Positions 1 through 36,236 of a stretch of 46,981 nucleotides of DNA are shown here, piece after piece. How positions within the stretch are numbered: position 1 is the stretch's first letter; every line of letters starts with the position of its first letter. The stretch covers positions 1 to 46,981 of the forward strand of contig JAPLVB010000011.1 in NCBI GenBank assembly GCA_026397335.1, given 5' to 3'. This stretch comes from Candidatus Aenigmatarchaeota archaeon. GTDB taxonomy: Archaea > Aenigmatarchaeota > Aenigmatarchaeia > QMZP01. A program made the position numbers and the translations under genes. Under the pieces are notes generated by a model, which saw only the letters and a program-made list of their open reading frames with translations, was not told the DNA's origin and did not search any database.

Positions 1-510
1 GAAAGGGGCTTCAGGGAGTTCAGAAAATGGGGTCTTGGCCTGTGGGTGATATCACAGGTGCTTATGGACTTCAAGGGAACGATAAGGGCGAACATCTCGA
101 ATGAAATCCAGATGAGAACCAAGTACACAGGAGACATAAAGAGGATAAGCCAGAAGTACGGATTCCAGTATGCATCAACTTCAACCAAGCTCAAGACAGG
201 AACAGGACTGGTGCAGAATGCAGAATACAATGAAGGCAAGCCTTATTTCATAGAATTCAGACCGCTACTTCATGATACAGGCAGATTGAGCGAAGAGGAG
301 ATAGCCGAGTATATTAAGTACGATACAGAAATTATAAAAATAGAGAAGAAAGTTGCCGAGCTGAAAGCAAAAGGAGGAGACATAGCAGATATAGAATTCG
401 AGCTCAAGCTTGCCAAAGACAAGGCAAGGCAAACCATGTTCACAATGGCAAAGACATACATAGACTCAATAAAGAACAGGCTCGCAAAACAGGGCGTTAC
501 AATGGATTAA
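1..510 (+). CDS. hypothetical protein, probably 5'-partial; helical K/E-rich C-terminus
   Basis: Frame 1 is open from base 1 to the TAA at 508-510. The GTG at 46 is only the first in-window start candidate. No family motif recognised. Confidence 0.4.
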   Translation, partial: ERGFREFRKWGLGLWVISQVLMDFKGTIRANISNEIQMRTKYTGDIKRISQKYGFQYASTSTKLKTGTGLVQNAEYNEGKPYFIEFRPLLHDTGRLSEEEIAEYIKYDTEIIKIEKKVAELKAKGGDIADIEFELKLAKDKARQTMFTMAKTYIDSIKNRLAKQGVTMD

Positions 511-534: not shown

Positions 535-2256
535 ATGGCAAAAGTAAAGGAACCCCCAGAAGAACTGCAGAGGCAGAAAGAGGACATAGAAAACCTGCTC
601 TCCTCTCTTGAAGCAGGTTTTGCTGAAGGCAGCATAACTCAGGAGCATTACAAAGAGGTAAAGCAAAAAAACCTGGAGAAGCTGGAAGAGATAAAAAAGA
701 AACTGAAGCTGTCTGAAAAACAAGCCCAGAAAAAGGCCGAGAATGAAGCTCCTGAAAAAGCAGAAGCTCAGCCAAAGGAACCGCTGCCAAAGGAGGAAAA
801 GAAGGAAGAAAAGAAGGAAGAAAAGAAGGAAGAAAAGAAGCCCGGAATACTGGGGGAACTCTCCTCGAAAATATCCGGCGAGAGGGAATCAAACGAGGAA
901 AAAATAAAGGAAAAGATAATAATGGAGTTCTCGCCCAAGATAGAAAAAATCAACATCCGGCTTGTTAAGCTTAAGGCCTTTCTGGATGCAATGAAAGAGG
1001 ACAAAACGGGTGAGAGGGAGAATACCCAGCATATAAATGAAGAGCTTGGCGAGACGCGCTCTGCCCTGAGCAGCATAGAGGGCAGGCTCAGCGAGATGGA
1101 AATGAAGCTTGAGGATGCGACAGAGACGCTGGCAGACCTAAAGCCCCAGAGATTTGCAAAGGAGATTCAAAAGAAAGAAGAAGAGCTCAAGATGCACGAA
1201 GCAAGGCTGGAGAAACTGGATGACATGAACTCCACCATTCTCAAGAGGGTTAACCAGATACAAATCATTCTTGAGAAACTCGGGAACATAGAAAGCATAG
1301 CCACGATGACGAAAGACATCTCTAAAAAGCTCGTGTCAATAGACGACAAGGAGAAGAAGATAACAAGGCTTGCAGACAAGATAGATAACATGTTCGTGGA
1401 AATAAACAAGAGGCTTGAGGAATTCATGTTCTACAAAGCCAAGCAGGACTCCCTTGACGACCTTTCAAAGGAAATGCTCAAATCCATGGACGAACTGACA
1501 ACAAAACTCACAAGATACGCTGAGAAAGATGACCTGGAGATTCTCAGAGACACGTTGGAAAACAAGATTAATACAATCATGAAGGAGGGAGGAACTCCAA
1601 GCGTCTCCAAGCAGTTGCAGCAGGAAAAATCTGAGGTAGAATCGCTGATGAAACTGCTTGATGAGCAGTTCAAGAAAGGCCAGATGTCCAAGAAAGACTA
1701 TGAGAAAGCAAAAGAAGCCAATCTGCAAAAAATCAGGGAGATGGAAGCAACACCGCAAAAAGCAGCACTTCCAATCCCGGCAGAGAGCGAGGAAACCATA
1801 ATAGAGCAGGCGCCTGCGATTGAAGAAGAGATTCCAGAATCGCAATCCGGACTAGAGCAGGCAGCGAAAATTGCCCAGGCTCCAGAAATCCAGCCAACTC
1901 CGAAGAAAGAAGCGAAGGAGGAAAAACAGGCTCCTGCCAAACCAACACCCAGCAAGAAAGTCGCTTCCCGCGAGGAAGAGCCTAGCCAGAAGACAGTTAC
2001 AAAGGAAGAAATCGCGAAAAAAATAGGAAAAGCGAAAGAAGGCGGAAAGGAGACAGAAGTCGGCAAAGCCGACTTCCAACCAAAATCCGCCTTCATTTCA
2101 GAGTCTGAGAAGCCAATCCAGCTAAAGTCTGCGAAACCGCCTGACAAGAAACAGAAGATGCTTGCCGACCTTGAATATTCATTCAGAAAGGGTCTCATAA
2201 GCCAGAAGGCCTATGAAACTGCTCAGAAGATGATAATGGCAAAAAGTTTTGACTAA
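535..2256 (+). CDS. 573-aa coiled-coil protein with three SHOCT-like motifs and a KEEKK low-complexity run
   Basis: E/K/L-rich heptad-like sequence throughout. The pattern L..L...F..G.I[ST]...Y...K...L occurs three times, at about aa 18-50, 368-400 and 541-573. No TM segment or Walker motif. Confidence 0.6.
   Translation: MAKVKEPPEELQRQKEDIENLLSSLEAGFAEGSITQEHYKEVKQKNLEKLEEIKKKLKLSEKQAQKKAENEAPEKAEAQPKEPLPKEEKKEEKKEEKKEEKKPGILGELSSKISGERESNEEKIKEKIIMEFSPKIEKINIRLVKLKAFLDAMKEDKTGERENTQHINEELGETRSALSSIEGRLSEMEMKLEDATETLADLKPQRFAKEIQKKEEELKMHEARLEKLDDMNSTILKRVNQIQIILEKLGNIESIATMTKDISKKLVSIDDKEKKITRLADKIDNMFVEINKRLEEFMFYKAKQDSLDDLSKEMLKSMDELTTKLTRYAEKDDLEILRDTLENKINTIMKEGGTPSVSKQLQQEKSEVESLMKLLDEQFKKGQMSKKDYEKAKEANLQKIREMEATPQKAALPIPAESEETIIEQAPAIEEEIPESQSGLEQAAKIAQAPEIQPTPKKEAKEEKQAPAKPTPSKKVASREEEPSQKTVTKEEIAKKIGKAKEGGKETEVGKADFQPKSAFISESEKPIQLKSAKPPDKKQKMLADLEYSFRKGLISQKAYETAQKMIMAKSFD
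790..840 (+). repeat. 12-nt tandem repeat (gaaggaagaaaa, about 4 units) encoding (KEEK)n
   Basis: Perfect units at 801-812, 813-824 and 825-836, with a partial unit on each side. Lies inside the ORF 535-2256. Confidence 0.9.
2038..2094. repeat. 57-nt nested-hairpin element (copy A) inside a coding sequence
   Basis: Outer stem GAAGGCGGA (2038-2046) pairs with TCCGCCTTC (2086-2094). Inner hairpin is GAAGTCGGC-AAA-GCCGACTTC (2056-2076). It has the same architecture and length as 10189-10245. Confidence 0.8.
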
Positions 2257-2746: not shown

Positions 2747-3000
2747 CATATGAAATCCCGATATATATCCTGCTCGCAGCCTCGGCGTTCTGCCTTGTGC
2801 GCATAGCAAGGGGGCCTTCCATCCCCGACAGGGTGCTGGCTACAGACACATTCCTCTCAATAATAATATCCATAATGGTTTTGCTCTCTCTGGAAACAAA
2901 CGATTTCCTGATGGACATCGCAATAGTTTATGCAGTGCTGGGTTTCCTTGGCACAATAGCAGTATCAAAATATCTGGAAGTAAGAAAGCTGGGTGAATGA
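2737..3000 (+). CDS. mrpF: Mrp/Mnh-type antiporter subunit F
   Basis: 87 aa, 3 TM, with an RIARGPSIPDRVLATDT motif typical of MnhF/PhaF. Overlaps mrpE by 10 nt. Confidence 0.75.
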   Translation: MAMTYEIPIYILLAASAFCLVRIARGPSIPDRVLATDTFLSIIISIMVLLSLETNDFLMDIAIVYAVLGFLGTIAVSKYLEVRKLGE

Positions 3001-3415
3001 TATGATAGGATGGATTCTGATATTTACAGGCTCTATAATATCAGTTATAGGAGCTTTAGGGCTGATCCGCTTCCCTGACATATACAGCAGAACTCATGCC
3101 CAGACAGTGGTCAATGTTGGGGGAACATGCGTCATACTTCTGGGAGTTTTTTTCCAGGCACCTTTCTTCTCTTTATACTCCGTAAAATCCATTCTCCTTA
3201 TAATCTTCATATTCCTCACCTCGCCCGTGGGCTCCCATGCTATTGCCCGCGCAGCCTACAAATCCGGGGTGAAGCCTAGGAAAATCCATGAAGATGAACT
3301 GGGATACAAAATAATCAAGGATGAAAAGCCGTTCGTTCGAGAGAAGGAATACGAAAAAACAAACCAATCAGGATATAAATTCAGAAAAAGAAGATTCTTC
3401 AAAAGGAGGCCTTAG
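2993..3415 (+). CDS. mrpG: Mrp/Mnh-type antiporter subunit G with a basic C-terminal tail
   Basis: GLIRFPDIYSRTHAQT motif typical of MnhG. Overlaps mrpF by 8 nt. Has an extra K/R-rich tail of about 45 aa. Confidence 0.75.
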   Translation: MNDMIGWILIFTGSIISVIGALGLIRFPDIYSRTHAQTVVNVGGTCVILLGVFFQAPFFSLYSVKSILLIIFIFLTSPVGSHAIARAAYKSGVKPRKIHEDELGYKIIKDEKPFVREKEYEKTNQSGYKFRKRRFFKRRP

Positions 3416-3417
3416 AA

Positions 3418-3457
3418 AGAAGGCATCTGCAGACGCCTTCTGTCGAAGTGCGCCTTC
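3418..3457. repeat. GAAGG/CCTTC hairpin element (copy G), 3 nt after the mrpG stop
   Basis: AGAAGGCATCTGCAGACGCCTTCT (3418-3441) is a 24-nt palindrome with one A/C mismatch. It is followed by a second GCGCCTTC arm (3450-3457). It shares the GAAAGAAGG 5' flank with copies A and C. Confidence 0.6.
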
Positions 3458-9181: not shown

Positions 9182-9240
9182 GAAGGTGGATTTCAGTTAG
9201 AAGGTGTCTCTTGACACCTTCAGTCTAACGTTCCACCTTC
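9182..9240. repeat. 59-nt nested-hairpin element (copy C) between convergent genes
   Basis: Outer stem GAAGGTGGA (9182-9190) pairs with TCCACCTTC (9232-9240). Inner hairpin GAAGGTGTC-TCTT-GACACCTTC (9200-9221) is identical to 16640-16661. Confidence 0.85.
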
Positions 9241-9249
9241 AACCTCAAA

Positions 9250-9546
9250 CTAAACAACGCCTTCTTTCGCTTTCTTCGTTTCCTCTTCCTCAACAGGAGC
9301 TGTCACATGCTTTATTATGACTATATCCCCTATTGCCTGGACCATCGGGAAAGGCACGATAAGACCTTTCTTGTTCCCCACCATTTTTGAAAGGTAGGAA
9401 CCCTTCATGGCGTTTATAACAAGAGACCTAAGCTTGAACCTCTTTATGTCACACTCGACATCCTCAACCTTTCCGCAGTACAATCCCTTGTCAGTGAAAA
9501 CATCCTTTGACCATGTCTGGGAAACGCTGGATATCCTGATAGCCAT
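9250..9546 (-). CDS. PRC-barrel domain protein
   Basis: About 98 aa with a V..KGLY.GKVEDVE.D......L.I layout typical of archaeal PRC-barrel proteins. The ATG at 9546 is preferred. Confidence 0.55.
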   Translation of the reverse strand: MAIRISSVSQTWSKDVFTDKGLYCGKVEDVECDIKRFKLRSLVINAMKGSYLSKMVGNKKGLIVPFPMVQAIGDIVIIKHVTAPVEEEETKKAKEGVV

Positions 9547-9719
9547 ATAATCACCCCATTTCTTGGAAAGACGGCTTTGCTCACGCAAAATAAGCCGTCG
9601 ATTGAACGGTTACCCTAATACCATTCACAATATACTAATATTGCGGGAATGCTTATAAAAGTATTGTGTAACCAGCATAATCTAACGCTATTCCTTCTTG
9701 AACCGTGACAAAAATTGAG

Positions 9720-9852
9720 CGCTGGGAGAGGGATTTGAACCCTCGCGTGCTTTCGCACACAGGTTGTTTGCAATTTTCCGTTAACGCTTTTGCGCGAAGC
9801 GGAAAAGGGTTATAGCAAACCTGCGCCTTAAACCTAGCTCGGCCATCCCAGC
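9720..9852 (-). tRNA. tRNA-Ser(GCU), class II, with an intron of about 47 nt at the canonical 37/38 position
   Basis: Sense strand reads GCTGGGA...CAGGT-TTGCTA[intron]A-ACCTG, with variable arm TGTGCGAAAGCACGC, T-arm GAGGG-TTCAAAT-CCCTC, then TCCCAGC-G. Confidence 0.8.
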
Positions 9853-9870
9853 ACATTCATTCTAGGTAAG

Positions 9871-9943
9871 TGGACCGACCGGGATTTGAACCCGGAGCCT
9901 CTGCCATGCCGAGACAGCGATCTACCAGTTGATCTATCGGCCC
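9871..9943 (-). tRNA. tRNA-Ala(GGC), intron-less, G3:U70 present, C at position 33
   Basis: The 73-nt sense sequence GGGCCGATAGATCAACTGGTAGATCGCTGTCTCGGCATGGCAGAGGCTCCGGGTTCAAATCCCGGTCGGTCCA fits standard numbering exactly. Confidence 0.85.
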
Positions 9944-9944
9944 G

Positions 9945-10050
9945 TGGGTCGGGGCAGAATTGAACTGCCGACCTCTGCCTTGTAAGGGCAGCGTCTCAGT
10001 CGGAAAGGCGTCCTTCGGACGTCCACCTATAACCACTAGACCACCGACCC
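9945..10050 (-). tRNA. tRNA-Val(UAC) with a 32-nt intron inside the D-arm (21/22 to 23/24)
   Basis: Sense strand reads GGGTCGG-TG-GTCT-AGTGGTTAT-AG[GTGGACGTCCGAAGGACGCCTTTCCGACTGAG]AC-G-CTGCC-CTTACAA-GGCAG..GGCAG-TTCAATT-CTGCC-CCGACCC-A. Confidence 0.75.
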
Positions 10051-10123
10051 AAGCGGTTTATATAGTTTATGCAAGTCTATATATTTTTATATTTAAAAGC
10101 CCCTAATCGCTTAAGAAAAGCAC
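10051..10123. promoter_or_regulatory. divergent tRNA promoter region
   Basis: A/T-rich spacer gtttatatagtttatgc...tatatatttttatatttaaaag has TATA-like boxes about 25 nt from each tRNA 5' end. Confidence 0.4.
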
Positions 10124-10271
10124 GCATCAGTAGTCTAGTGGCAGGACACAGGCTTCCCAAGCCTGTAATGCGGGTTCGATTCGAGATTGAAGGCGGAACG
10201 ATAGAGAGAAGGCGCCGAAGCGCCTTCCAGCCGAAATCCGCCTTCCTTCCAAGAAACTCCCGCCTGATGCA
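10124..10271 (+). tRNA. tRNA-Gly(CCC) with a 77-nt intron at the T-loop/T-stem junction (60/61 or 61/62)
   Basis: GCATCAG-TA-GTCT-AGTGGCA-GGAC-A-CAGGC-TTCCCAA-GCCTG-TAAT-GCGGG-TTCGATT-[intron 10182/3-10258/9]-CCCGC-CTGATGC-A. The mature length would be 71 nt. Confidence 0.8.
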
Positions 10272-10273
10272 TC

Positions 10274-12107: not shown

Positions 12108-13130
12108 TTAACCAGGCTGACCGTTACACTCAATCCTGTTTCCCTTAACCTTGAATTTCACATCCAGAAATCTCTCTATAACACTCATGTTCGTTTTTGC
12201 ATGCTGCGTAACTCGTGCCACACTCACCTCTGATTTGCCCTTGGCAAGGGCCAGATAAGGTAGAATCTGGTCAGCCATCCATTCATCCAGGCATGCTCCT
12301 GAATCCAGATTTCTCTTCAGGAGGGAGGCTGCCTCCTGGCCAACCTTCTCGGCACCCTTTCCTCGTTCCCCTATGGAACTTGCCCCAAGGAAGCAGTTTC
12401 CAAAGAATGAAACCAGTGTTATTGCCGAACCCGGAGAGAGGGAGGGAACGTATTTCACGGATTTCTTAACTTCACCGAGGACTTTCTCCGCAGCTTCCAT
12501 CTGCCTCTCCGCGACATGGTTTTTTACCAAATCCTTTGAGGCAGAGCTCCAGCCTTCCGTAAAAACATGCTTTCCCCTGGAAGTCAGGCTAACCGGTATG
12601 AGAAGCGATGAAGGCTTCACAATTACCATTATTTTCCCGCCACCCTTCGGGTAGAATCCATAAGAAAGGGTTTCGGATTCAACATTCGCGCCCATCTTGC
12701 CAATAAACTCACAGAAGACGTGACGAAAGTAGCCTGTTGTCGGGCTCCAGTTCACATGACTCCCGCCCGTTATCTCAAATATAAGCTCTTTCCCGGCAAC
12801 AACAGCCGGAATCATAAGGGTCTGCAGGACAAGCGTGACAGAGCCTGCTGTTCCCACATCTATCTGCAGCTTCTGCTCCGAAATTTCCTTGGGATAAAAT
12901 TCTATTTCCTGGGAGCCGATTTTCAGGCCTTTCACCTGCGCATTGCAGAGCTTTGCAGCCGCCTCTATCCCCTTGAGATGCTGGGCCTTGAGGCCGGGGA
13001 CAGGGCGACCTTTCCTTATGTTGAAGATTTTCACGGGTTTCCCAGTAACACAGGAAAGGCCTATGGCAGTCCTAACTATCTGGCCTCCGGCTTCCAAGTG
13101 ACCGCCATCTATTGTCAGAATTTCCGGCAT
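12108..13130 (-). CDS. rtcA: RNA 3'-terminal phosphate cyclase
   Basis: GGQIVRTAIGLS...IFNIRKGRPVPGLKAQHL signature, 340 aa. Confidence 0.9.
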   Translation of the reverse strand: MPEILTIDGGHLEAGGQIVRTAIGLSCVTGKPVKIFNIRKGRPVPGLKAQHLKGIEAAAKLCNAQVKGLKIGSQEIEFYPKEISEQKLQIDVGTAGSVTLVLQTLMIPAVVAGKELIFEITGGSHVNWSPTTGYFRHVFCEFIGKMGANVESETLSYGFYPKGGGKIMVIVKPSSLLIPVSLTSRGKHVFTEGWSSASKDLVKNHVAERQMEAAEKVLGEVKKSVKYVPSLSPGSAITLVSFFGNCFLGASSIGERGKGAEKVGQEAASLLKRNLDSGACLDEWMADQILPYLALAKGKSEVSVARVTQHAKTNMSVIERFLDVKFKVKGNRIECNGQPG

Positions 13131-13148
13131 AATAAGAAATTGTTTTGG

Positions 13149-14396
13149 TTATACTTTAATCTTGTCCCCGTTGGCAGGCGCATAAGCGTCAAATCCCATA
13201 TGCTTCAGCTCCTGGGCAAATTCAGGAGTCCTGTCACCATGCACGAGAACTATTTTTCCGGGGTTAGTCTTCTTGAAGAATTCTATAAGGTGGTCATGAT
13301 CGGTGTGAGCCGAGAAGTCTATCTGTTCGACTTTCATATTCGGTTTGATGTCTAACCCTTCGTTTATGTATCTTCCTGTATCCAAGAGTTTCCTTCCAAC
13401 TGTTCCCTCCACCTGAAATCCACTGATAACCATAGTACAGTTCTCGCGTTTGTGGAGTCTTTTTATGTAATATCCGATGGGGCCCCCGTTAAGCATCCCT
13501 GCGGTTGTTATCACGATGCATGGCTTGCTTAGTATGGCTTCCCTCTGCGAGGATTTTGCTATCTTGTGCGCCTTTCCAAAAGCCTTCTTAAGCCTTTCAA
13601 TATTCCTTACAGACTCGGGATAAGACATGATTACCTCAGTAGCGGTTATGCCCATTCCATCCAAGTAAATGGGAAATCCAAGGTCATGAAGGATAAGGAG
13701 CAGCTCCTGTGTTCTTCCCACGGCGAATGTCGGAAGGAGAAGTATCCCATTATTGTAAATTGTTTCCTGTGCAATTTCCCTCAACCTATCCTCTGCCGCT
13801 GTCCTCTCGGGATGATTTTTATGGGAGTAAGTGGCCTCGGTAATAAGCATGTCTATGTTCTGATAAGAAAGCGCGGCAGCCTTCATGAGCTGCGTGTCTA
13901 TAAAATTTATGTCACCCGTGAACATTACCCTCTTCTGGTTGGAATTTATTATGAAAGAAACGCTTCCCGGTACATGGCCTGATGAATGGACTTCTACAAC
14001 AGATGAGCCCACATGTTCTTTGCGGCCGAATTCAACAATCTTTTTCTTCCGCTCCATTTCCTTTATGTCATGGGCCATGTACATAGGCTCTATCCCGTTC
14101 CTATCCTGAATTTTCAGGGAATCCCTCAGAAGCAGGGAAGACAGGTCGAATGTGACTCCGGTTCCGTAAACATTCCCTCCATAGCCGCTTTTGTAAAGGC
14201 CCGGAACATATCCGGAATGGTCAAGCTGCGCATGGCTGAGAAGAATAGCATCCAAAGGAAGCTTGGGCTTTATGGGCATTTCAAAGCTCTGGACCTCAAT
14301 CCCGTGGTCAAGAATGAATTTTTCTGTTCCAGTTTCCAGAAGAACAGACAGCCTTCCAACCTCCCTTCCTCCTCCAAGTATTGTGATTTCAGGCAT
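13149..14396 (-). CDS. beta-CASP metallo-beta-lactamase-fold ribonuclease (aCPSF2-like, no KH domains)
   Basis: SHAQLDHSG (variant of HxHxDH), SGHVPGS, FTGD, ITEATY, FSAHTD and LVHGD motifs. The MPEITILGGG start at 14396 is preferred. Confidence 0.8.
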   Translation of the reverse strand: MPEITILGGGREVGRLSVLLETGTEKFILDHGIEVQSFEMPIKPKLPLDAILLSHAQLDHSGYVPGLYKSGYGGNVYGTGVTFDLSSLLLRDSLKIQDRNGIEPMYMAHDIKEMERKKKIVEFGRKEHVGSSVVEVHSSGHVPGSVSFIINSNQKRVMFTGDINFIDTQLMKAAALSYQNIDMLITEATYSHKNHPERTAAEDRLREIAQETIYNNGILLLPTFAVGRTQELLLILHDLGFPIYLDGMGITATEVIMSYPESVRNIERLKKAFGKAHKIAKSSQREAILSKPCIVITTAGMLNGGPIGYYIKRLHKRENCTMVISGFQVEGTVGRKLLDTGRYINEGLDIKPNMKVEQIDFSAHTDHDHLIEFFKKTNPGKIVLVHGDRTPEFAQELKHMGFDAYAPANGDKIKV

Positions 14397-14407
14397 ACAG
14401 AACAACT

Positions 14408-14419
14408 TTCTATAAATAT
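14408..14419 (+). promoter_or_regulatory. TATA-like box for the RuBisCO gene
   Basis: tttctataaata is centred about 25 nt upstream of the ATG at 14439, which implies a leaderless or short-leader transcript. Confidence 0.4.
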
Positions 14420-14438
14420 CCAAAAGTAATTTAATATT

Positions 14439-15401
14439 ATGTCTTACTTGGATTTAAGCTACAAGCCGAAAAGTGATTTAGTCTGCGAATTCTATCTGGA
14501 GCCGGCAAAAGGAATTTCTATAAAGGACGCTGCTGAGCATATTGCAGGAGAATCCTCAATAGGCACATGGACTGAAGTCTCCACATCAACCCCGCGAATC
14601 AGGAAAATGGCTGCAAAAGTCTTCTCAATAAAAGGCAATTACGTGAAGATAGCATACCCCCAGGAGCTTTTCGAGCCTGGAAACATGCCGCAGATAATGA
14701 GCAGTATAGCAGGGAACATATTCGGGATGAAGGCTATCGAGAATCTAAGGCTTGAAGACATAGATTTCCCGAAAGAGATTGCGAAATCGTTCAAAGGCCC
14801 TGAAATCGGGCTTGATGACCTGAGAAAAATCAGCGGAATAAAAGGACGGCCAATCCTGGGAACAATATACAAGCCCAAGCTGGGCATGAATCCGAAAGAG
14901 ATGGAAGACCTTGCGTATAAAGTCTATTCCTCAGGGCTTGACTACACAAAGGACGACGAGAACCTCTGCTCAATGAGTTTCAACAAATTCGAGGACAGGG
15001 TTTCAAGGATTCTTGGCGTTGCTGACAGAATCAAAAGCGAGCAGGGGAGGACAGTTATTTACGCGGCAAACATAACCGCTCCTGCGCATGAAATGCTCAA
15101 GCGTGCGCAGTTCGTTAAGGATCATGGCGGGAAATGCATAATGATTGACATAATGACAGCAGGCTGGAGCGGTCTTCAGTACATAAGGGAACAGAACCTC
15201 GGGATGATAATCCACGCACACAGGGCAATGCACGCAGCCATCACGAGGAATCCCAAGCATGGGATTTCCATGCTTTCAATCGCGAAGGCCGCAAGGCTTG
15301 TAGGAGTGACAGCCCTGCACACAGGCACTGTTGTCGGAAAGATGGAAGGCCCAAAAGATGAGGTTATAGAGATAGACAATTTCCGCAAGTCGGATTTCTA
15401 A
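14439..15401 (+). CDS. rbcL: RuBisCO large subunit, form III-like, N-terminal 320 codons (ends at tandem TAA TGA)
   Basis: GTWTEV, GNIFG, TKDDEN (carbamyl-Lys), HAHRAMHAA and GKMEG (loop 6) are all present. Confidence 0.85.
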   Translation: MSYLDLSYKPKSDLVCEFYLEPAKGISIKDAAEHIAGESSIGTWTEVSTSTPRIRKMAAKVFSIKGNYVKIAYPQELFEPGNMPQIMSSIAGNIFGMKAIENLRLEDIDFPKEIAKSFKGPEIGLDDLRKISGIKGRPILGTIYKPKLGMNPKEMEDLAYKVYSSGLDYTKDDENLCSMSFNKFEDRVSRILGVADRIKSEQGRTVIYAANITAPAHEMLKRAQFVKDHGGKCIMIDIMTAGWSGLQYIREQNLGMIIHAHRAMHAAITRNPKHGISMLSIAKAARLVGVTALHTGTVVGKMEGPKDEVIEIDNFRKSDF

Positions 15402-15416
15402 TGAATCAAAAAAATC

Positions 15417-15650
15417 ATGCCAAGCGCATCCGGTGGCTTTCATCCAGGACTTGTCCCGGACCTCCTGAAAATCCTCGGTAACGACTTGGTAATAACTTTC
15501 GGCGGCGGGCTATGGGGACATCCCGGAGGGCCTGAATCAGGCGTAAGAGCAATCAAGCAGGCAGTCGAATCTTCCATGCAGAAAATCCCTCTTGAGGAAT
15601 ACGCGAAAACACACAGGGAGCTGGCTCAAGCTCTCATGCAGTGGAAGTAG
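15417..15650 (+). CDS. rbcL: RuBisCO large subunit, C-terminal 77 codons, same reading frame as 14439-15401
   Basis: SASGGFHPG and FGGGLWGHPGG phosphate-binding motifs. It is separated from the upstream part only by TAA TGA ATC AAA AAA ATC. Confidence 0.8.
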   Translation: MPSASGGFHPGLVPDLLKILGNDLVITFGGGLWGHPGGPESGVRAIKQAVESSMQKIPLEEYAKTHRELAQALMQWK

Positions 15651-16606: not shown

Positions 16607-16661
16607 GAAGGCGAATGCCTTCTTTCGAACAGTTAGACTGAAGGTGTCTCTTGACACCTTC
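16607..16661. repeat. two tandem GAAGG/CCTTC hairpins (copy D) in a divergent intergenic region
   Basis: GAAGGC-GAAT-GCCTTC (16607-16622) and GAAGGTGTC-TCTT-GACACCTTC (16640-16661). The second is an exact 22-nt copy of 9200-9221. Confidence 0.85.
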
Positions 16662-16682
16662 TATCGGAAATCGGGTGGTATT

Positions 16683-21275: not shown

Positions 21276-22376
21276 TCAAACCAGTTCCTTCTTTGGTTTC
21301 TTGGGAGGTGTGGGCTTCCTGACAGCAGGTTTGGAATCCTCTTTCAGGGTCTTTACAGTTTCTGTGAGGAGCTTTAGGGATTCCATCATGGGCGTCATGC
21401 CGTCGCGCAGCGCCTTTTCCACAGTTTCCATCCGGCTGTGCATGCCCGTCACAGACTCACTGTACATGCGTATCTTATCATCAAGCCTTTCTAGGCTGGG
21501 ATTTTTTACAGTCTGCATTTTCGCCACTTTATCTTCTATGGAAGCCAGCTTTTCAGTTATGCCAGCCACATTCATGTTCATGGAATTCACGGAATCCTTG
21601 AACCCCTTCATGTTCCCTGAAATCAGATCATCCACATCCATGTCATCATCAAGGTCATCCATATCAGGAGCTTTTCTTGTAGACCTCCTGAAAATACTTG
21701 TTGGTGAAGCAATGGGGGCTCCAGGCTCGTAAATAAAAGTTTCCGGGAGACTCCTTTCAAACCTTTCGGGAGCCGGAGCTGGAGGAATGGATTGCTGGGG
21801 TGCAGGAGATTTTGGCTGGAAGGCTGGAAAATCAAATCCATTAGCTCGTTTGGGAGGATCTAGCTTAGGGGGATCAGGAGGACTGTAGTTCTCCATGAAC
21901 CTCTTTGCTGTCTCCATCTTTTCGTAAAGAGACTCTTCCTTTTGCAACTCATTTTCCATTTTCCTGATTGCAAGGTTGATTTTTTCAAGGATAGAATCGA
22001 AGGTCTTTTCGTGCTTGGCTATCATGGTGTTTACCTGGGAAACCACGTCAGCTTTCAGTTTTTTTATTTCTTCATCATTTTCTTCAAGTTTTTCAGGCAT
22101 GCTTTTAGCGAATTCCGAGATTTCTGTTATCCTCTTATCCATCAGCCTGAGCACCTCTTCGCTTCTTTCGCTGGATTTTCTCGCCTCTGTTTCAATCTTC
22201 TGAATCCTTCCATTAAAGTTTTTTATTAAGTTATCCATCTGCTTTAGCTGCTTGGAGTTGGAATCCACAAGCTCCTTTACCTGCTGGGCGATTTCCCTGT
22301 ATCTGCCTTTCCAAAGCTCTTCCTTCCCCTTAAGACTCACAATCCGCTTCTCGATTTTTTTGTAAACTTCAGGCAT
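21276..22376 (-). CDS. 366-aa protein: coiled coil, Pro-rich/acidic linker, second helical domain
   Basis: The N-terminal 170 aa are heptad-like. The linker reads PPDPPKLDPPK...DMDDLDDDMDVDDL. The C-terminus is helical with repeated M/S/K. GGAAGGT..GGGTG lies upstream of the ATG. Confidence 0.6.
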   Translation of the reverse strand: MPEVYKKIEKRIVSLKGKEELWKGRYREIAQQVKELVDSNSKQLKQMDNLIKNFNGRIQKIETEARKSSERSEEVLRLMDKRITEISEFAKSMPEKLEENDEEIKKLKADVVSQVNTMIAKHEKTFDSILEKINLAIRKMENELQKEESLYEKMETAKRFMENYSPPDPPKLDPPKRANGFDFPAFQPKSPAPQQSIPPAPAPERFERSLPETFIYEPGAPIASPTSIFRRSTRKAPDMDDLDDDMDVDDLISGNMKGFKDSVNSMNMNVAGITEKLASIEDKVAKMQTVKNPSLERLDDKIRMYSESVTGMHSRMETVEKALRDGMTPMMESLKLLTETVKTLKEDSKPAVRKPTPPKKPKKELV

Positions 22377-22395
22377 GTTTGCACCCGAACCTTCC

Positions 22396-22474
22396 GATTG
22401 AAGTCGGCTCTAGCCGACTTCCTTCCAAGTGTTCGTTTGAAGGTGGCATGTAGCCACCTTCCTTCCAACAGTTC
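22396..22474. repeat. two tandem 39/40-nt hairpin units (copies E and F) in the intercistronic spacer
   Basis: GATT-GAAGTCGGC-TCTA-GCCGACTTC-CTTCCAAGTGTTC followed by GTTT-GAAGGTGGC-ATGTA-GCCACCTTC-CTTCCAACAGTTC. The stems differ by compensatory TC/GA versus GT/AC. Confidence 0.85.
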
Positions 22475-24983
22475 AATCCTCTTCTTTGAGAAGCTCGTAA
22501 AGCTTTATCTGCTCCTCCTGCCATTCCTTTATGTCTTTCTTGAGGTCTGCTATTTCCTCCCGCAGTTTTGAAATCTCCGCCTTGTCGGACTGCTGTTCTT
22601 CAAGCAGCTTTCTCATCATCTCCTCTTTATCCTCAGAGAGCCTCTTCTCGAGCCTTTTATCCTCAACGTTTACGTTCTCTATCATCTTCACAACCCTTGT
22701 TAACGCAGATTCCATACCCTTCACATATTCCTGCTGGCTGGAAACCCTTTTCTCAATCTCAGTCCTGAATTCCGCATTTTTAGCCTGCTCCTTTATAAGA
22801 TTCTGAAAATCAATATGGTGCTTTTCGACTTTTGAGCCGATGGCGGAGTCAATAGCCTGCAGCTGTTTCATCCGGGTTTCCGCCCCGGAGATCCTTTTAT
22901 CAGCAGAAACTTTCGAGGAGCTGAGCGCATTAAGCTGCTTGTTAAGGGCGGATGTTACCAAAGAAGATGTCCTGAGGCTGCTTTCCATGGACTTTACTTT
23001 CTCCAATAAGGCCTTTCTCTCTGAATAAATCTGGGATTCCATTCTTCCTAACTTAACATTTAAATCCTTGGAGAAGGAGCCCGATTTCTCAAGGCCTGTT
23101 GCGAGGGAATCAATCCTTTTCAGGGCATCTGATACTTCCTCCTCGTTTTTCTCTATTTTCTCTGAAGCAGAATACTCGTGTTTCTTAATCCTGCTGTCAA
23201 GGGACTTGGTGAACTCGTTCAGCCTGGCTATTGCCTGGACGGTGTTTCTTATATTCTCTGAAAACTTTGCCCTCTGCTCTGCCAGGTTCTTCTTCTCTGC
23301 AGATACATCCCCGGAAAGCCCGGAAATCCTTTGCCATGATTTTTCAGAAAGGCCGGTTATCTTGGATGAGAGGGCTTTCTGCTCCTCCCTTATTCCCCTC
23401 TCCAAGACAATCTTCATTTCAGCAACAGCCTTTTTCTCGGAAGCCACGTGCGAGCTGACATGCGAGATTCTGTTTTCAATATGATCATAAGATTCTGAAA
23501 GTTTTGAATCAAAATTCTCCTGCGATTCCTTGATTCTCTCATTTATCAGGGATTCTACATCCGCTATATCCCGCCTCTCGCCAGCAAGACTTTCATTAAT
23601 CTTGGCTATCCTGCCTGCAAACTCCTCATAAACCGCTTTGAGCCTGGCCTCGAGAAGTTCAGCATGCCTTTTCTGGTTCAAATCAGCATGCGCTTTCAGC
23701 TGCCCTGCCTTTGAGCTTATGCTCTCCTCAGCGCTTTTCCTGATTTCAGAAATCTTTCTGTCAAATTCAGCAATCGCCTTAAGCCTTCTTTCAATAAGCT
23801 CAACCTGCTTCTGGTCGCTTATCTCAATGTGCGATTTGAGCTGTCCCACTTTATAATCTATTGCCTCTGCTGCATGCTTCCTGACACCAGCAATCTCCTT
23901 CTCAAGCCTGCTTTCACGCAGGGAAACGGTTTTTTGGGATTCAGCTATCTTCCTGCTTATCAGGGATTCTATACTTCCCATTTCCTTTCTTTCGCTGGCA
24001 AGCCTCTCATTTATCTTGGCTACCCTGGCCGCAAAATCCTCATAAACAGCTTTCATCCGCGTTTCGAACAGTTCAGCCTGCCTTTTCTGGTTCAAATCAA
24101 AATGCGCTTTCAGCTGCCCTGTCTTTGAGCTTATGCTCTCATCAGCACTCTTCCTCAGCTCAGCCAGCCTCTTCTCAAGCTTCTCATCCTCAAGATTTAT
24201 GCTGTCCAGCCTCTTTGCGATTTTGGATACAGCGGAATCCAGCTCCTTTATTGAGGCCTGGTGGCCTGAGACTCTCTTCTCGATTTCAGCCCTGGAGAAT
24301 CCTGCATTCTCAAGCTGCTTCTTGAGAGAAACGGTGTTAACCTTGAGCTGCCTGACAAAAAGCGAGGTCCGGGAAAGATTCCTCTTCAGCTCCTCATGTG
24401 ATGCAGCCAGCACATTTACCGAGTCTGTCGCGTCTTGGAGAACCTCCTCTGAGGCTTCTGATATCTTCAGGGAAAGCCTGTCCTGTGCTGTTTTCAGCTG
24501 TGTTTCAAAATGACCTTTTGTCTCAGTCAGCCTGGATTCCAGCGCTTCGTCCTCTTTGGCTTCCTTCTCCCTCAACCTCTCTATATGGCTTTTTGAGAGG
24601 CTGGTCAGTTCACTGAGCTTTTTTATAACCTTCTCAGCCTCGAGAAGCCGGTTCTTAAGCGACTCATCTCCTGAGCGGATTTTTGAGAGATAGGAAGTAT
24701 GGATTTTGAGCTCCTGCTCAATGGCGGATATCTTCCTGGTTTCGGCCTTCAGCTCCGCGATCTGGTTTTTTATGGGAGCTGTCTCCTTGTCCACAAAATC
24801 CAGGATGCGCTTTCCGGCTTCCTCATAAATGACATAGGCTTCCCCGAGCTTCTGGCCAAGGAACCTTGTCCTCTCGATTAGAAATGCGCGATCCTTCTGC
24901 AGTTGTTCTATCAATCGCTTCTGGCTGTCAGAATTCTTCTTGAGCTTTTCTATCCCGGTGCTCAGCTCATCAATCTCTTTCAT
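22473..24983 (-). CDS. 836-aa giant coiled-coil protein with internal repeats
   Basis: Uninterrupted E/K/L/S-rich heptad sequence with a 138-aa-period internal duplication. No TM, signal peptide or NTPase motif. Confidence 0.65.
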   Translation of the reverse strand: MKEIDELSTGIEKLKKNSDSQKRLIEQLQKDRAFLIERTRFLGQKLGEAYVIYEEAGKRILDFVDKETAPIKNQIAELKAETRKISAIEQELKIHTSYLSKIRSGDESLKNRLLEAEKVIKKLSELTSLSKSHIERLREKEAKEDEALESRLTETKGHFETQLKTAQDRLSLKISEASEEVLQDATDSVNVLAASHEELKRNLSRTSLFVRQLKVNTVSLKKQLENAGFSRAEIEKRVSGHQASIKELDSAVSKIAKRLDSINLEDEKLEKRLAELRKSADESISSKTGQLKAHFDLNQKRQAELFETRMKAVYEDFAARVAKINERLASERKEMGSIESLISRKIAESQKTVSLRESRLEKEIAGVRKHAAEAIDYKVGQLKSHIEISDQKQVELIERRLKAIAEFDRKISEIRKSAEESISSKAGQLKAHADLNQKRHAELLEARLKAVYEEFAGRIAKINESLAGERRDIADVESLINERIKESQENFDSKLSESYDHIENRISHVSSHVASEKKAVAEMKIVLERGIREEQKALSSKITGLSEKSWQRISGLSGDVSAEKKNLAEQRAKFSENIRNTVQAIARLNEFTKSLDSRIKKHEYSASEKIEKNEEEVSDALKRIDSLATGLEKSGSFSKDLNVKLGRMESQIYSERKALLEKVKSMESSLRTSSLVTSALNKQLNALSSSKVSADKRISGAETRMKQLQAIDSAIGSKVEKHHIDFQNLIKEQAKNAEFRTEIEKRVSSQQEYVKGMESALTRVVKMIENVNVEDKRLEKRLSEDKEEMMRKLLEEQQSDKAEISKLREEIADLKKDIKEWQEEQIKLYELLKEED

Positions 24984-33173: not shown

Positions 33174-34181
33174 ATGTTAAAATGCAGGATTGGTTTCATG
33201 CAGAAAATGCTGCTCGCAACTTTATTGATTGCGGTTCTGTTCCTGAGCGGTTGCACAACGCAAACAGGGAAGGTTTACCATGTGGGCATCCTGTCTGGCC
33301 TGGACGCTTTGTCCGGCATAGCCGATAGCTTTAAGGCCAAAATGACAGAGTTAGGCTATATAGAGGGTAAAAATATTGTTTATGATATACAGAAGACAAA
33401 CTTTGAGCCTGATAAAGAGCAGCAAATTCTCAAGAAATTTGTAGACGATAAGGTTGACTTGATTTTCACGTTCCCCACTGAGCCGGCTGTAGCAGCCAAG
33501 GCGGCTACCCAGGGAACAGGAATTCCTGTGGTTTTTTCCTTCGCTACAATAGAAGATAATAATCTTGTAGATAGTGTGCGCCAGCCTGGCGGGAACATAA
33601 CTGGCGTGCGGGAGCCTGGTCCAGACATTTTTGTCAAGCGCTTGGAGATTTTACATGAGTTGGCGCCTCAGGCCAAACGAGTTTATATAACTTATAACCC
33701 AAATGCCCCTCCTGTCCCGCCAGCGCTTGATGTATTGCGTAAGGCAGCTCCTCTAATGAATGTAACATTAGTGGAGAATCCTGTTGCAACCGTGGAAGAG
33801 ATTGAGACTGATTTGCAGGCGCGAAACAAATCAGCTGATATTGGCATGGACGCCATACTAATGATGGGTGAACCTCTTTCTGTCTCGCCTCCTGCTCTTG
33901 AAGCAATGACTAAGTTTGCAACCGAACACAAGATACCCATTGGAGGAGTTGGAAGTTACACAATCAGAGGGAGTATTGTTTTTAGTTATGAGATTGTGCT
34001 TGATGATATGGGTAAGCTGGCTGCCCCTCTCACCGACAAAATCCTCAAAGGCACACCGGCCGGCACCATCCCAGTCGTCACACCCGAGGCAAAGTTGCTG
34101 ATCAATTACAAACTGGCTAAAGAGCTGAATCTGACAGTGAGCGAAGGCCTGCTGGCCCGTGCGGATGAAATAATTCGTTAG
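33174..34181 (+). CDS. lipoprotein, ABC-type substrate-binding protein of the COG2984/ABC_sub_bind family (paralog 1)
   Basis: Lipobox-like LSGC. KVYHVGILSG..., KVDLIFTFPTEPA, GIPVVFS, PGGNITGV, and GTPAGTIPVV...LNLTVSEGLLARADEIIR. Confidence 0.8.
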   Translation: MLKCRIGFMQKMLLATLLIAVLFLSGCTTQTGKVYHVGILSGLDALSGIADSFKAKMTELGYIEGKNIVYDIQKTNFEPDKEQQILKKFVDDKVDLIFTFPTEPAVAAKAATQGTGIPVVFSFATIEDNNLVDSVRQPGGNITGVREPGPDIFVKRLEILHELAPQAKRVYITYNPNAPPVPPALDVLRKAAPLMNVTLVENPVATVEEIETDLQARNKSADIGMDAILMMGEPLSVSPPALEAMTKFATEHKIPIGGVGSYTIRGSIVFSYEIVLDDMGKLAAPLTDKILKGTPAGTIPVVTPEAKLLINYKLAKELNLTVSEGLLARADEIIR

Positions 34182-34194
34182 AGAGGTGATAAGA

Positions 34195-35208
34195 ATGGTT
34201 AGAGATAAAAGAATGGGATTTGGATTGCAGGCAGTTCTTGCATCCTTGCTGGTTGCAGTCATTTTTCTTGGAGGCTGCACCACCACACAGAATGAGAAGG
34301 TTTATCATGTCGGGGTCCTGTCCGGCCTGAGTTTTGTTGCCGACATAACGGACGGCTTAAAGGCCAAGATGACCGAGCTAGGCTACACAGAGGGAAAGAA
34401 CATAGTCTATGACGTGCAGGAAACGAACGTTGACCCGGCCGCGTACCGGCAAGTCCTCAATAAATTCGTAGCCAATAAGGTGGACTTGATTCTCGCGTTT
34501 CCCACTGAGGTCGCTCTAGAGGCTAAAGCAGCCACCCAAGGGATAGGCATCCCCGTGGTTTTTGCCAATGCCGTTATAGAAAATACAGGCCTGGTCAATA
34601 GCGTGCGCGAGCCGGGAGGGAACATCACGGGCGTGCGCTTCTCAACCTCGGACCTTGCGTTACGGCGTTTTGAAATCTTGCACGAGCTAGCGCCGCATGC
34701 CAAGCAGATGTGGATACCATATCAGCGGGGTTATCCCATCGTAGCCAGCCAGTTAGGGGCATTGCAACCAGTAGCGGCATCAGCGGGAGTAACAATGATA
34801 GAGGTCCCAGCCGACAATGCAACAGAACTTGAGACTAATTTGCAGACGCGCGTGAAATCGTCTGATATTAGCTCCGATGCCATATTATGTATAGTTGAAC
34901 CTCTTATGACGATGCCCGATACCCTTGCGGTCCTCGGTAAGTTTGCAGCTGAACACAAATTGCCGATTGGTGGTTGTCCAATATCGAATAATAGTAGCGG
35001 ATCGATTTTTATGACGGCGCCTGACAATGTTGACGTCGGCAAGCTCGCTGCATCCATAGCCGACAAAATCCTCAAAGGCACCCCGGCCGGCACAATCCCG
35101 GTTGTCACACCCGAGTCAAGACTACGAATAAATTATAAAGTGATTCAAGAACTGGGACTGAACGTCAGCGAGGGCCTGCTGAACAGGGCAGATGAGATAA
35201 TCCGTTAG
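34195..35208 (+). CDS. lipoprotein SBP, COG2984 family (paralog 2)
   Basis: Same motifs, lipobox LGGC. I prefer the ATG at 34195, which has GAGGTGAT upstream as in paralog 3. The track starts at the GTG at 34186. Confidence 0.8.
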   Translation: MVRDKRMGFGLQAVLASLLVAVIFLGGCTTTQNEKVYHVGVLSGLSFVADITDGLKAKMTELGYTEGKNIVYDVQETNVDPAAYRQVLNKFVANKVDLILAFPTEVALEAKAATQGIGIPVVFANAVIENTGLVNSVREPGGNITGVRFSTSDLALRRFEILHELAPHAKQMWIPYQRGYPIVASQLGALQPVAASAGVTMIEVPADNATELETNLQTRVKSSDISSDAILCIVEPLMTMPDTLAVLGKFAAEHKLPIGGCPISNNSSGSIFMTAPDNVDVGKLAASIADKILKGTPAGTIPVVTPESRLRINYKVIQELGLNVSEGLLNRADEIIR

Positions 35209-35222
35209 AGAGGTGATAGGAA

Positions 35223-36236
35223 ATGATTAGAAATAAAAGAACGGGATTCGGATTGCAAGCAGTTCTTGCATCCTTGCTGGTTGCAGTCATTTTTCTTGGA
35301 GGCTGCACCACCACACAGAATGAGAAGGTTTATCATGTCGGGGTCCTGTCAGGCCTGAGTTTTGTTGCCGACATAACGGACGGCTTAAAGGCCAAGATGA
35401 CCGAGCTAGGCTACACAGAGGGAAAGAACATAGTCTATGACGTGCAGAAAATGGACTTTGACATGGTTGCATACAGGAGCGCACTCAACAAATTCGTGGA
35501 TGACAAAGTCGACGTGATTGTCGTGTTTCCCACAGAGGCGTCCATGGAGGCAAAAAAAGCCACAGAAGGAACAGGCACCCCCGTGGTTTTCACCTTTGCC
35601 CTCATAGAAGGGATGGGCCTCGTAGACAGCATACGTGAACCAGGCGGAAACATAACCGGCGTGCGCTATCCCGGCCCGGACATCGTGCTCAAGCGTTTTG
35701 AGATCATGCACGAGATGGTGCCGCAGGCCAAACGATTCTTGGTTCCCTATCAGCGCGGTTACCCCATCGTTGACCCCCAGTTAGAGGCGCTGCGCCCAGC
35801 TGCTGAAGCAGCAGGTATAACGCTGGTAGAGCTTCCCGCCAGCAACGCAACAGAACTTCAAGCCTACCTTGATCCGCGAAACAAATCGGCCGATGCGGGC
35901 TTCGATGCCATCCTGATAATAGTCGAACCTCTGGCCGTGACGCCTGACGCCTTCGGAGCGCTTGGCAAGTTTGCGTATGAGCATAAGCTGCCGATTGGCG
36001 GAGCCCTGATGGCAGCGGGGGATTATAAATCCATCTTTGGCGTAAACGTCAATGACATTGCGGTTGGCAGGCAGACCGCACCTCTGGTCGACAAAGTTCT
36101 CAGAGGGACCCCAGCTGGCACCATACCAGTTGTCTCAGCAGACAGCTATTTCCAGATTAATTACAAAGCAGCTCAGGCATTCGGCCTGAACGTGAGCGAG
36201 GGCCTGCTGGCCAGGGCGGACGAGATAATACGATAG
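35223..36236 (+). CDS. lipoprotein SBP, COG2984 family (paralog 3)
   Basis: Same motifs. The first ~75 codons are nearly identical in DNA to paralog 2. Confidence 0.8.
   Translation: MIRNKRTGFGLQAVLASLLVAVIFLGGCTTTQNEKVYHVGVLSGLSFVADITDGLKAKMTELGYTEGKNIVYDVQKMDFDMVAYRSALNKFVDDKVDVIVVFPTEASMEAKKATEGTGTPVVFTFALIEGMGLVDSIREPGGNITGVRYPGPDIVLKRFEIMHEMVPQAKRFLVPYQRGYPIVDPQLEALRPAAEAAGITLVELPASNATELQAYLDPRNKSADAGFDAILIIVEPLAVTPDAFGALGKFAYEHKLPIGGALMAAGDYKSIFGVNVNDIAVGRQTAPLVDKVLRGTPAGTIPVVSADSYFQINYKAAQAFGLNVSEGLLARADEIIR

Follow-up and report, generated by a model that had tools for sequence, protein, structure and literature searches.

A dispersed palindromic repeat family of an Aenigmatarchaeota lineage, with a probably translated copy in a coiled-coil gene and another at the core of a tRNA intron

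The first 46,981 nucleotides (nt) of contig JAPLVB010000011.1 (assembly GCA_026397335.1, Candidatus Aenigmatarchaeota archaeon), hereafter the window, carry within the open reading frame (ORF) 535-2256 a 57-nt palindromic element in which one hairpin is nested in the loop of another. Here we report with good confidence that this element, copy A, belongs to an old, dispersed and lineage-restricted family of presumably selfish palindromic repeats and is most likely translated as a 19-residue linker insertion, not spliced. Members of the family are found inside core enzymes, in the tails of ribosomal proteins, in a tRNA splicing endonuclease gene and in a tRNA intron of this uncultured DPANN lineage. 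The family would constitute a recurrent route by which archaeal proteins gain linker and loop segments, which annotators may wish to recognise as repeat-derived, and it offers a concrete system for the study of how archaeal tRNA introns arise at the DNA level, a mechanism called unknown in PMC4090602. It also removes a tempting false positive, in that a new archaeal mRNA intron is very improbable here.

Copy A has the sequence GAAGGCGGAAAGGAGACAGAAGTCGGCAAAGCCGACTTCCAACCAAAATCCGCCTTC and folds into a 9-base-pair outer stem, a symmetrical 9/9 internal loop, a 9-base-pair inner stem and a loop of 3 nt. Its folding energy of -30.1 kcal/mol (z = -7.2) was equalled by 0 of 200 shuffled sequences, and covariance model R1 recognises it with a score of 64.3 bits (E = 9e-15). 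The element is in phase with the ORF (2038 minus 535 is divisible by 3), free of stop codons, and its 19 in-frame codons specify the peptide EGGKETEVGKADFQPKSAF (EGGKETEVGKADFQPK). A second copy of the same architecture, copy B, forms the core of the intron of the tRNA-Gly(CCC) gene; its outer-stem arms are identical to those of copy A, the overall identity is 76%, and the inner stems differ by compensatory changes that keep the pairing (GAAGTCGGC/GCCGACTTC versus GAAGGCGC/GCGCCTTC). The joint pattern common to the two copies has an expected count of 0.00 in shuffled sequence. A preliminary description of this DNA, made from the letters alone, had reported the position, phase and open frame of copy A and its relation to the tRNA-intron copy, and all of this proved exact.

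The gene that hosts copy A lies upstream of mnhE, mrpF and mnhG. It has at least 17 orthologs, and behind each of them come these three genes and one for a histone. The ortholog alignment places copy A in a gap-rich, hydrophilic and variable C-terminal linker upstream of a conserved KPPDKKQKMLADLEYSFRKGLISQKAYETAQ tail, and three alleles other than that of the window occur at this site: a single hairpin, a different nested copy, or nothing. In the syntenic ortholog L140 the flanks are near-identical and the site reads GAAGGCGG-CTCAC-CCGCCTTC, a hairpin of 21 nt specifying the peptide EGGSPAF, so that the window allele shares the outer hairpin and holds 36 nt (12 codons) more in its loop. The more distant ortholog L001 has the same outer stem with another inner unit and another 5' motif, again 57 nt in total, and in three further orthologs (P0001-P0003) the whole segment is missing. 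The preliminary description had proposed such a comparison, and what it reveals is a 19-codon segment that varies among orthologs, with no uniform non-hairpin version. The earlier statement that precise removal of the element joins GKAK to ISESEK in frame is correct as arithmetic; the shorter allele that exists in nature, that of L140, is however a 21-nt hairpin and not an empty site. Inserts, be they single hairpins or nested elements, number at least ten across seven orthologous genes, where they occupy six or more positions and include two identical copies in one gene. Occupancy also differs in the spacer that separates the coiled-coil gene from mnhE: the window and L143 have no element there, L140 and L144 have a nested one, and L001 and L003 have a single hairpin. 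As a separate observation, a giant ORF invariably comes before the coiled-coil gene, with 5,675 amino acids in L001 (1-9933), 12,568 in L145 (1-9990) and 3,738 in L003 (1-9991), and the first ORF of the window (46-510) may be the tail of that gene.

Copy A is very probably not an mRNA intron. Archaeal splice sites are defined by a motif termed bulge-helix-bulge (BHB), a 4-base-pair helix flanked by two 3-nt bulges, or by the half-motif hBH/HBh', at the exon-intron junctions (PMC4090602). A strict scan of positions 1978-2155 (A at least 3, H at least 3/4, B at least 3) gave no match at copy A, and a relaxed scan gave weak matches only, which require the 9-base-pair outer stem to be melted; the canonical intron of the tRNA gene at 9720-9852, which served as positive control, scored A = 7 and H = 4/4. 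The element does not interrupt the product, as the ORF is continuous and the conserved C-terminal tail lies in the same frame. Hairpins inserted into the orthologs of ORF 535 measure 21, 22, 52, 55, 57 and 58 nt, and all are part of a single continuous frame that reaches the conserved C-terminus; were eight independent insertions in the coiled-coil gene spliced, the chance that all of them keep the frame would be about (1/3)^8. Split or truncated orthologs are absent among those retrieved, with the exception of P0017, which has no contig on record.

The same holds for copies in other genes. Intragenic hairpins range from 21 to 58 nt and occur in both orientations and all three phases, yet the conserved flanks stay in one frame in every case, and inserts that can be measured against empty or shorter sites comprise 36, 39 and about 66 nt. 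Among some 40 copies there is no gene whose halves lie in different frames or are split by an in-frame stop. One case is the RuBisCO large subunit of L142, where a 39-nt insert, SDGRRQETPSVQM (predicted peptide SDGRRQETPSVQMK), is found between VFSI and KGN, and where the empty site in the window and in L141 reads GTCTTCTCAATA directly followed by AAAGGC. Relative to the solved enzyme of M. thermautotrophicus (PDB 2d6f), GatE is longer by about 22 residues, a stretch that coincides exactly with a 57-nt copy. Homology on both sides of the insert is likewise found for a PAS_10 domain split by a 58-nt antisense copy, for a DNA methyltransferase with an antisense copy immediately before DPFCGVGTT and for a deoxyhypusine synthase with a copy in its N-terminus. 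Homology supports one flank only for the copies in the C-terminal tails of ribosomal proteins S6e, L24 and L14e and for a 58-nt copy in an apparent N-terminal extension of a tRNA splicing endonuclease (L038 2794-2851), whose core of about 175 amino acids has both the N and C domains. That the frame is kept in all intragenic copies, although the hairpins are often not a multiple of three in length, supports translation, and antisense copies within intact domains argue against an RNA signal, since inversion would destroy the loop motifs.

The fourth line of evidence comes from the tRNA-Gly(CCC) gene, in which an element of the family does leave the transcript. An intron at position 59/60 of this gene is common to three species (the window, L141 and L142). 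It is 77 nt long in the window and 40 or 56 nt in the other two species, none of these a multiple of three; its interior is the nested element in the window and a single hairpin in L141 and L142. In the window the BHB consists of the T-stem GCGGG/CCCGC, a central helix UUCG/AGAA with three of four pairs and the bulges AU|U and AC|U. The central helix is formed by T-loop bases 54-57 (UUCG) and the last bases of the intron, with four of four pairs in L141 and three of four in L142. The inner helix is weak in the window, where the motif represents a relaxed form; the structure matches the definition given in PMC4090602, with 3-nt bulges, and splicing yields the T-arm GCGGG-TTCGATT-CCCGC of a canonical tRNA in all three species. 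Copy B is accordingly part of a BHB intron. What sets the splice sites is the T-stem together with the T-loop and the 3' tail of the intron, all of them outside the 57-nt element, and copy A has neither T-arm nor tail, which argues against its splicing. Frame, orientation, the missing splice signal in copy A and the tRNA splice sites lying outside the element all point to translation.

A covariance model search detects at least seven copies or fragments of the nested family in the window (Table 1). The preliminary description had spoken of two copies, both of which are real, and had missed the five others, copies C to G. The 40 distinct nested copies collected give the consensus GAAGGCG nnnn AAAGA nn GAAGGCGTC nGCn GACGCCTTC CAGCCA nnGn CGCCTTC, in which the stretch between GAAGGCG and GAAGGCGTC varies from 9 to 10 nt and that before CGCCTTC from 3 to 4 nt. 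Their lengths run from 55 to 61 nt, 57 being the commonest (16 of 40). Conservation extends beyond the stems: 81 oriented hairpins show strong conservation of AGA (positions -5 to -3) and of CAGCCA (positions +1 to +6), and a minority of copies have TCGATT in place of AAAGAnn before the hairpin. Single hairpins of the family are also found, often with an AAGA loop, and one locus (L019 4290-4400, minus strand), upstream of an Rpr2/RPP21-like gene, has three nested layers, GAAGGCGGAACGG...(GAAGGTGCG...(GAAGGCGTTTGCGGACGCCTTC)...CACGCCTTC)...TCCGCCTTC. Stem pairing is kept in 96% of the cells of the 40-copy alignment and falls to 31-52% in slid controls. The free columns covary, 24-38 being GC in 34 copies and UA in six with no mismatch, and 27-35 showing four pair types. 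The family is old, and it is restricted to the Aenigmatarchaeota (DPANN) lineage: when 185,579 species, each represented by one genome, were scanned for the pattern, the only true copies were those of two metagenome-assembled genomes of uncultured archaea, at least 16 of them in one genome. Wetland and sediment metagenomes yielded about 26 more, and the viral contigs scanned held none. The named homologs of the neighbouring M24 peptidase gene are from Aenigmatarchaeota, which makes the host a DPANN archaeon. Many further matches of the genome and metagenome pattern scans were chance occurrences in GC-rich bacteria and were filtered by requiring the outer stem and by G+C content.

Table 1 Copies of the palindromic family in the window and the genes that host copies A and B
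Feature	Position	Strand	Description and basis
Host gene of copy A	535..2256	+	Conserved coiled-coil protein of unknown function, 573 amino acids; orthologs, synteny
Copy A, nested palindromic element	2038..2094	+	Outer stem 2038-2046/2086-2094, inner stem 2056-2064/2068-2076
Copy G, nested, outer stem decayed	3402..3457	ambiguous	Overlaps last codons and stop of mnhG (2993-3415)
Copy C, nested, 59 nt	9182..9240	-	Convergent intergenic space, 9 nt past the stop of PRC-barrel gene 9250-9588 (minus strand)
tRNA-Gly(CCC) gene	10124..10271	+	5' exon 10124-10180, intron 10181-10257 (77 nt, position 59/60), 3' exon 10258-10271
Copy B, 57-nt nested element	10189..10245	+	Core of tRNA-Gly(CCC) T-loop intron; fold, covariance model
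Copy D, degenerate	16607..16673	+	Small hairpin 16607-16622 and inner hairpin 16640-16661; covariance model
Copies E and F, two tandem single-hairpin units	22387..22461	+	Spans 22387-22434 and 22439-22461; hairpins 22400-22421 and 22439-22461

How such a family may have come about can be outlined as follows. The unit would be the GAAGGCG...CGCCTTC hairpin, preceded by AAAGAnn or TCGATT and followed by a CAGCCA-type motif, usually with one unit lying in the loop of another. Units may have spread or been copied at the DNA level into many kinds of site, presumably by a mobilising enzyme; selection would remove the copies that break genes, and in-frame, stop-free copies in loops, linkers and termini would persist as extra peptide. 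Copy A would accordingly appear as 19 hydrophilic residues in a disordered linker, and the unit in the T-loop of tRNA-Gly(CCC) would leave with an ordinary BHB intron whose sites are formed by the T-arm and the intron tail. The nesting suggests either a preference for hairpin loops as targets or conversion between copies via their identical arms. The inserts in RuBisCO and in tRNA-Gly both follow the sequence TCGATT, which hints at a T-loop-like target or at microhomology. It is possible, though we put it forward tentatively and with less than even confidence, that the family is a DNA-level mobile element that targets single-stranded or T-loop-like sites (its own hairpin loops and TCGATT), and that the tRNA-Gly intron was born by such a landing. 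Targeting of its own loops would explain double and triple nesting; the unit in tRNA-Gly(CCC) would have landed after TTCGATT in the T-loop and been rescued by the splicing endonuclease. If this were true, a selfish palindromic repeat would be tied directly to the birth of an archaeal BHB intron, and one and the same element would act as an intron when in a tRNA and be translated into peptide when in a protein gene.

Several points weigh against the interpretation of copy A as a translated member of an old and once mobile family. The translation of its 19 codons is deduced from frame conservation only; the full-length orthologs were retrieved at the protein level, a route biased towards in-frame alleles; and 57 nt is also the commonest length outside genes, so that the divisibility of copy A by three is in itself no evidence. 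Most stem positions in the 40-copy alignment were fixed by the search pattern. At the copy-A site the interior may have been gained twice or lost once. With respect to current activity, the copies have diverged, the median pairwise identity being 71% and that of the best pair within a genome 86%. Pfam reveals no transposase domain among the ORFs of the window, a stretch of 47 kb of the genome, and the filled and empty RuBisCO sites show no target-site duplication at their junction; the word 'mobile' is consequently founded on distribution and on presence and absence.

Of the explanations that compete with a translated repeat, the one raised in the preliminary description is a protein-coding intron. 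Copy A would then be a pre-mRNA intron of the BHB type, with the cutting done by the tRNA splicing endonuclease and the ligation by RtcB, in the manner of crenarchaeal cbf5. This reading has its attractions, as a member of the same family resides in a genuine tRNA intron 8 kb away, the clade is rich in non-canonical tRNA introns, archaeal mRNA introns exist (PMC2738675) and removal of 57 nt would preserve the frame. However, there is no BHB at or near copy A, where T-stem, T-loop and intron tail are all missing; the ORF runs continuously through the element, and orthologs carry 21-nt or different 57-nt versions that are all in frame; intragenic copies also occur in antisense, and hairpins that are not multiples of three are embedded in inserts that preserve the frame. 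We consider such an intron very improbable, whereas the other option of that description, a peptide insertion tolerated in a low-complexity region, agrees with the variable linker, with the different alleles of the site among orthologs and with the same behaviour in many genes.

Another explanation is that the hairpins are removed or processed by a different, hairpin-specific RNA activity or are kept for a function in the host, such as protein binding, mRNA stabilisation or termination past stop codons, or translational pausing. The pairing held in old, diverged copies and the conservation of AGA and CAGCCA outside the stems would fit, as would the several copies immediately past stop codons or just upstream of tRNA genes. 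Against this, intragenic copies occupy both orientations and all phases, the Rfam search found no family match even at E = 1, the inserts in genes are multiples of three, which would be unneeded if the RNA were removed, and the occupancy of sites differs between close relatives; we therefore hold this explanation to be unlikely, albeit less so than splicing. The remaining thought, that the likeness of copies A and B is due to chance or is a by-product of E/G/K-rich linker codons, appeals to the low complexity of the linker and its wealth of GAA and GGC. It is refuted by the shuffles (0.00 expected), by the covariance model score (E = 9e-15) and by the dozens of copies that share loop motifs at unrelated loci, and can be set aside as hardly conceivable.

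To our knowledge, most in-frame 'coding palindromes' described so far come from Rickettsia, a single methanogen adding a handful of copies. What is new here is a very short, nested version in a DPANN lineage, with one copy serving as the core of a tRNA intron. The closest parallel is offered by the RPE (Ogata et al. 2000), which PMC10969869 describes as dispersed, hairpin-forming bacterial repeats of about 100-150 base pairs, many of them in frame within unrelated functional genes and others in non-coding DNA and RNA genes. The present family likewise adds peptide segments in frame without disrupting its host genes; it differs from the RPE in that its elements are 21-60 nt long, archaeal (DPANN), unrelated in sequence and nested hairpin in loop, and in that one forms a tRNA-intron core. 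The MJRE of Methanocaldococcus jannaschii, described by Suyama, Lathe and Bork (2005, FEBS Lett), are reportedly old and diverged palindromes, mostly extragenic, of which three intragenic copies keep coding potential. They are set apart, judging from their description, by another host phylum and sequence, and the intragenic copies described here are frequent, located in core enzymes and nested, with one in a tRNA intron. Of the features on which RPE- and MJRE-type families are recognised, the following are found here: a multi-copy family, sequence shared beyond the stems, maintained pairing, in-frame copies in genes and empty orthologous sites.

Other short repeats bear a more partial resemblance. 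Repetitive extragenic palindromes (REPs) are extragenic and are tied to RAYT genes, and MITEs (miniature transposable elements with inverted repeats) have target-site duplications and a partner insertion sequence. Like REPs, REPINs and MITEs, the units of the family are short, non-autonomous and hairpin-forming and have conserved motifs beside the stem; unlike for MITEs, neither a duplication (at the RuBisCO junction) nor a transposase (among the window ORFs) was found. In the Thermoproteales, related introns occur in many tRNA genes, and the gain is attributed to the DNA level by a mechanism said to be unknown (Fujishima et al. 2010; PMC4090602). In both systems similar short sequences exist as introns and elsewhere, and tRNA introns are here too gained and lost quickly among close relatives; the family reported here differs in that among tRNA genes it is seen in tRNA-Gly(CCC) only, most copies being intergenic or in protein genes, and in that the element supplies no BHB. 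The cbf5 pre-mRNA of archaea contains an intron with a BHB, and its ORF is restored only by splicing (PMC2738675). Copy A resembles this intron as a short insertion in an archaeal protein gene with lineage-specific presence and absence, and differs by having no BHB and leaving the ORF intact.

Returning to the individual copies in the window, copy C has stop codons in all six frames, and a decayed ortholog of it is present in L141. A BHB at copy C, formally complete with G-U pairs (a 64-nt 'intron'), was rejected as coincidental: the spacer around it is intergenic and convergent, and on the 3' side it borders on the stop region of the M24 peptidase gene, conserved in L141. Copy G scores 31.8 and 30.9 bits on the two strands in the covariance model search. 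Copy D is situated in a divergent intergenic region upstream of a POR gamma-like gene, and the flanks of its inner hairpin resemble those of copy C. Copies E and F, between the genes 21276-22376 and 22473-24983 (both on the minus strand), are each flanked by CGATT or CGTTT (5') and by CTTCCAA (3'). A string of 16 nt, AAAGCGAAAGAAGGCG, is found at 2026-2041, directly upstream of copy A and running into it, and again on the minus strand at 9277-9262, which is some 20 nt upstream of copy C and close to where the PRC-barrel gene has its 3' end (last residues KKAKEGVV, stop codon 9250-9252); the repeat is possibly the remnant arm of another layer, or due to chance.

Two further ideas on the nature of the element were discarded. 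Avoidance of stop codons as a design feature was not used as a main argument, the effect being modest (4.2 of six frames open in the copies versus 3.25 in shuffles) and copy C being closed in all frames. A K-turn, a C/D box, an H/ACA pocket or a tRNA minihelix (NCCA) was tried for the internal loop, by eye and with Rfam, and none fits; above its gathering thresholds Rfam reports only tRNAs over the window, and it gives no match for 1980-2150 up to E = 1. Intergenic copies in general often lie directly after stop codons or directly upstream of tRNA genes. In two organisms (L043 5161-5193 and L114 637-702) the same orthologous tRNA gene has a copy in front of it, with 11 nt between the two, in the place where an archaeal promoter is expected.

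The RuBisCO and tRNA loci of the clade show additional peculiarities. The form III RuBisCO large-subunit gene of the window (14439-15650) is broken by two adjacent in-frame stops, TAATGA at 15399-15404, and resumes at an ATG at 15417 (320 and 77 amino acids), while the ortholog of L142 is intact (416 amino acids) and has YG at that place; for the broken gene, decay to a pseudogene, a split with re-initiation and other explanations are all conceivable. Introns in tRNA genes turn over fast in the clade (window 9720-10272; L140 11428-11513; L141 4364-4750; L142 11669-12010). The type-II tRNA gene of the window (9720-9852) has a 49-nt canonical intron that its L140 counterpart lacks; tRNA-Val(TAC) is interrupted in the D-arm by an intron in the window and in the T-loop by an insertion in L142; tRNA-Ala has no intron in the window and an insertion in L142; and tRNA-Gly of L141 has a second intron, in the anticodon stem. 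A LAGLIDADG_3 (homing-endonuclease-like) ORF at L141 3647-4450 adjoins and overlaps the tRNA-Val gene on the opposite strand. Near the intron-rich tRNA cluster of the window, at 12108-14423, an RNA 3'-phosphate cyclase (RtcA) gene adjoins that of a beta-CASP RNase, an order kept in L141 and L142. Finally, three tandem paralogous genes for ABC substrate-binding proteins (33174-36236, with a repeat period of about 1,027 nt) are followed by genes for a Cache/HAMP sensor, a histidine kinase and a response regulator. So rich a cluster of signalling genes is unusual in a DPANN genome.

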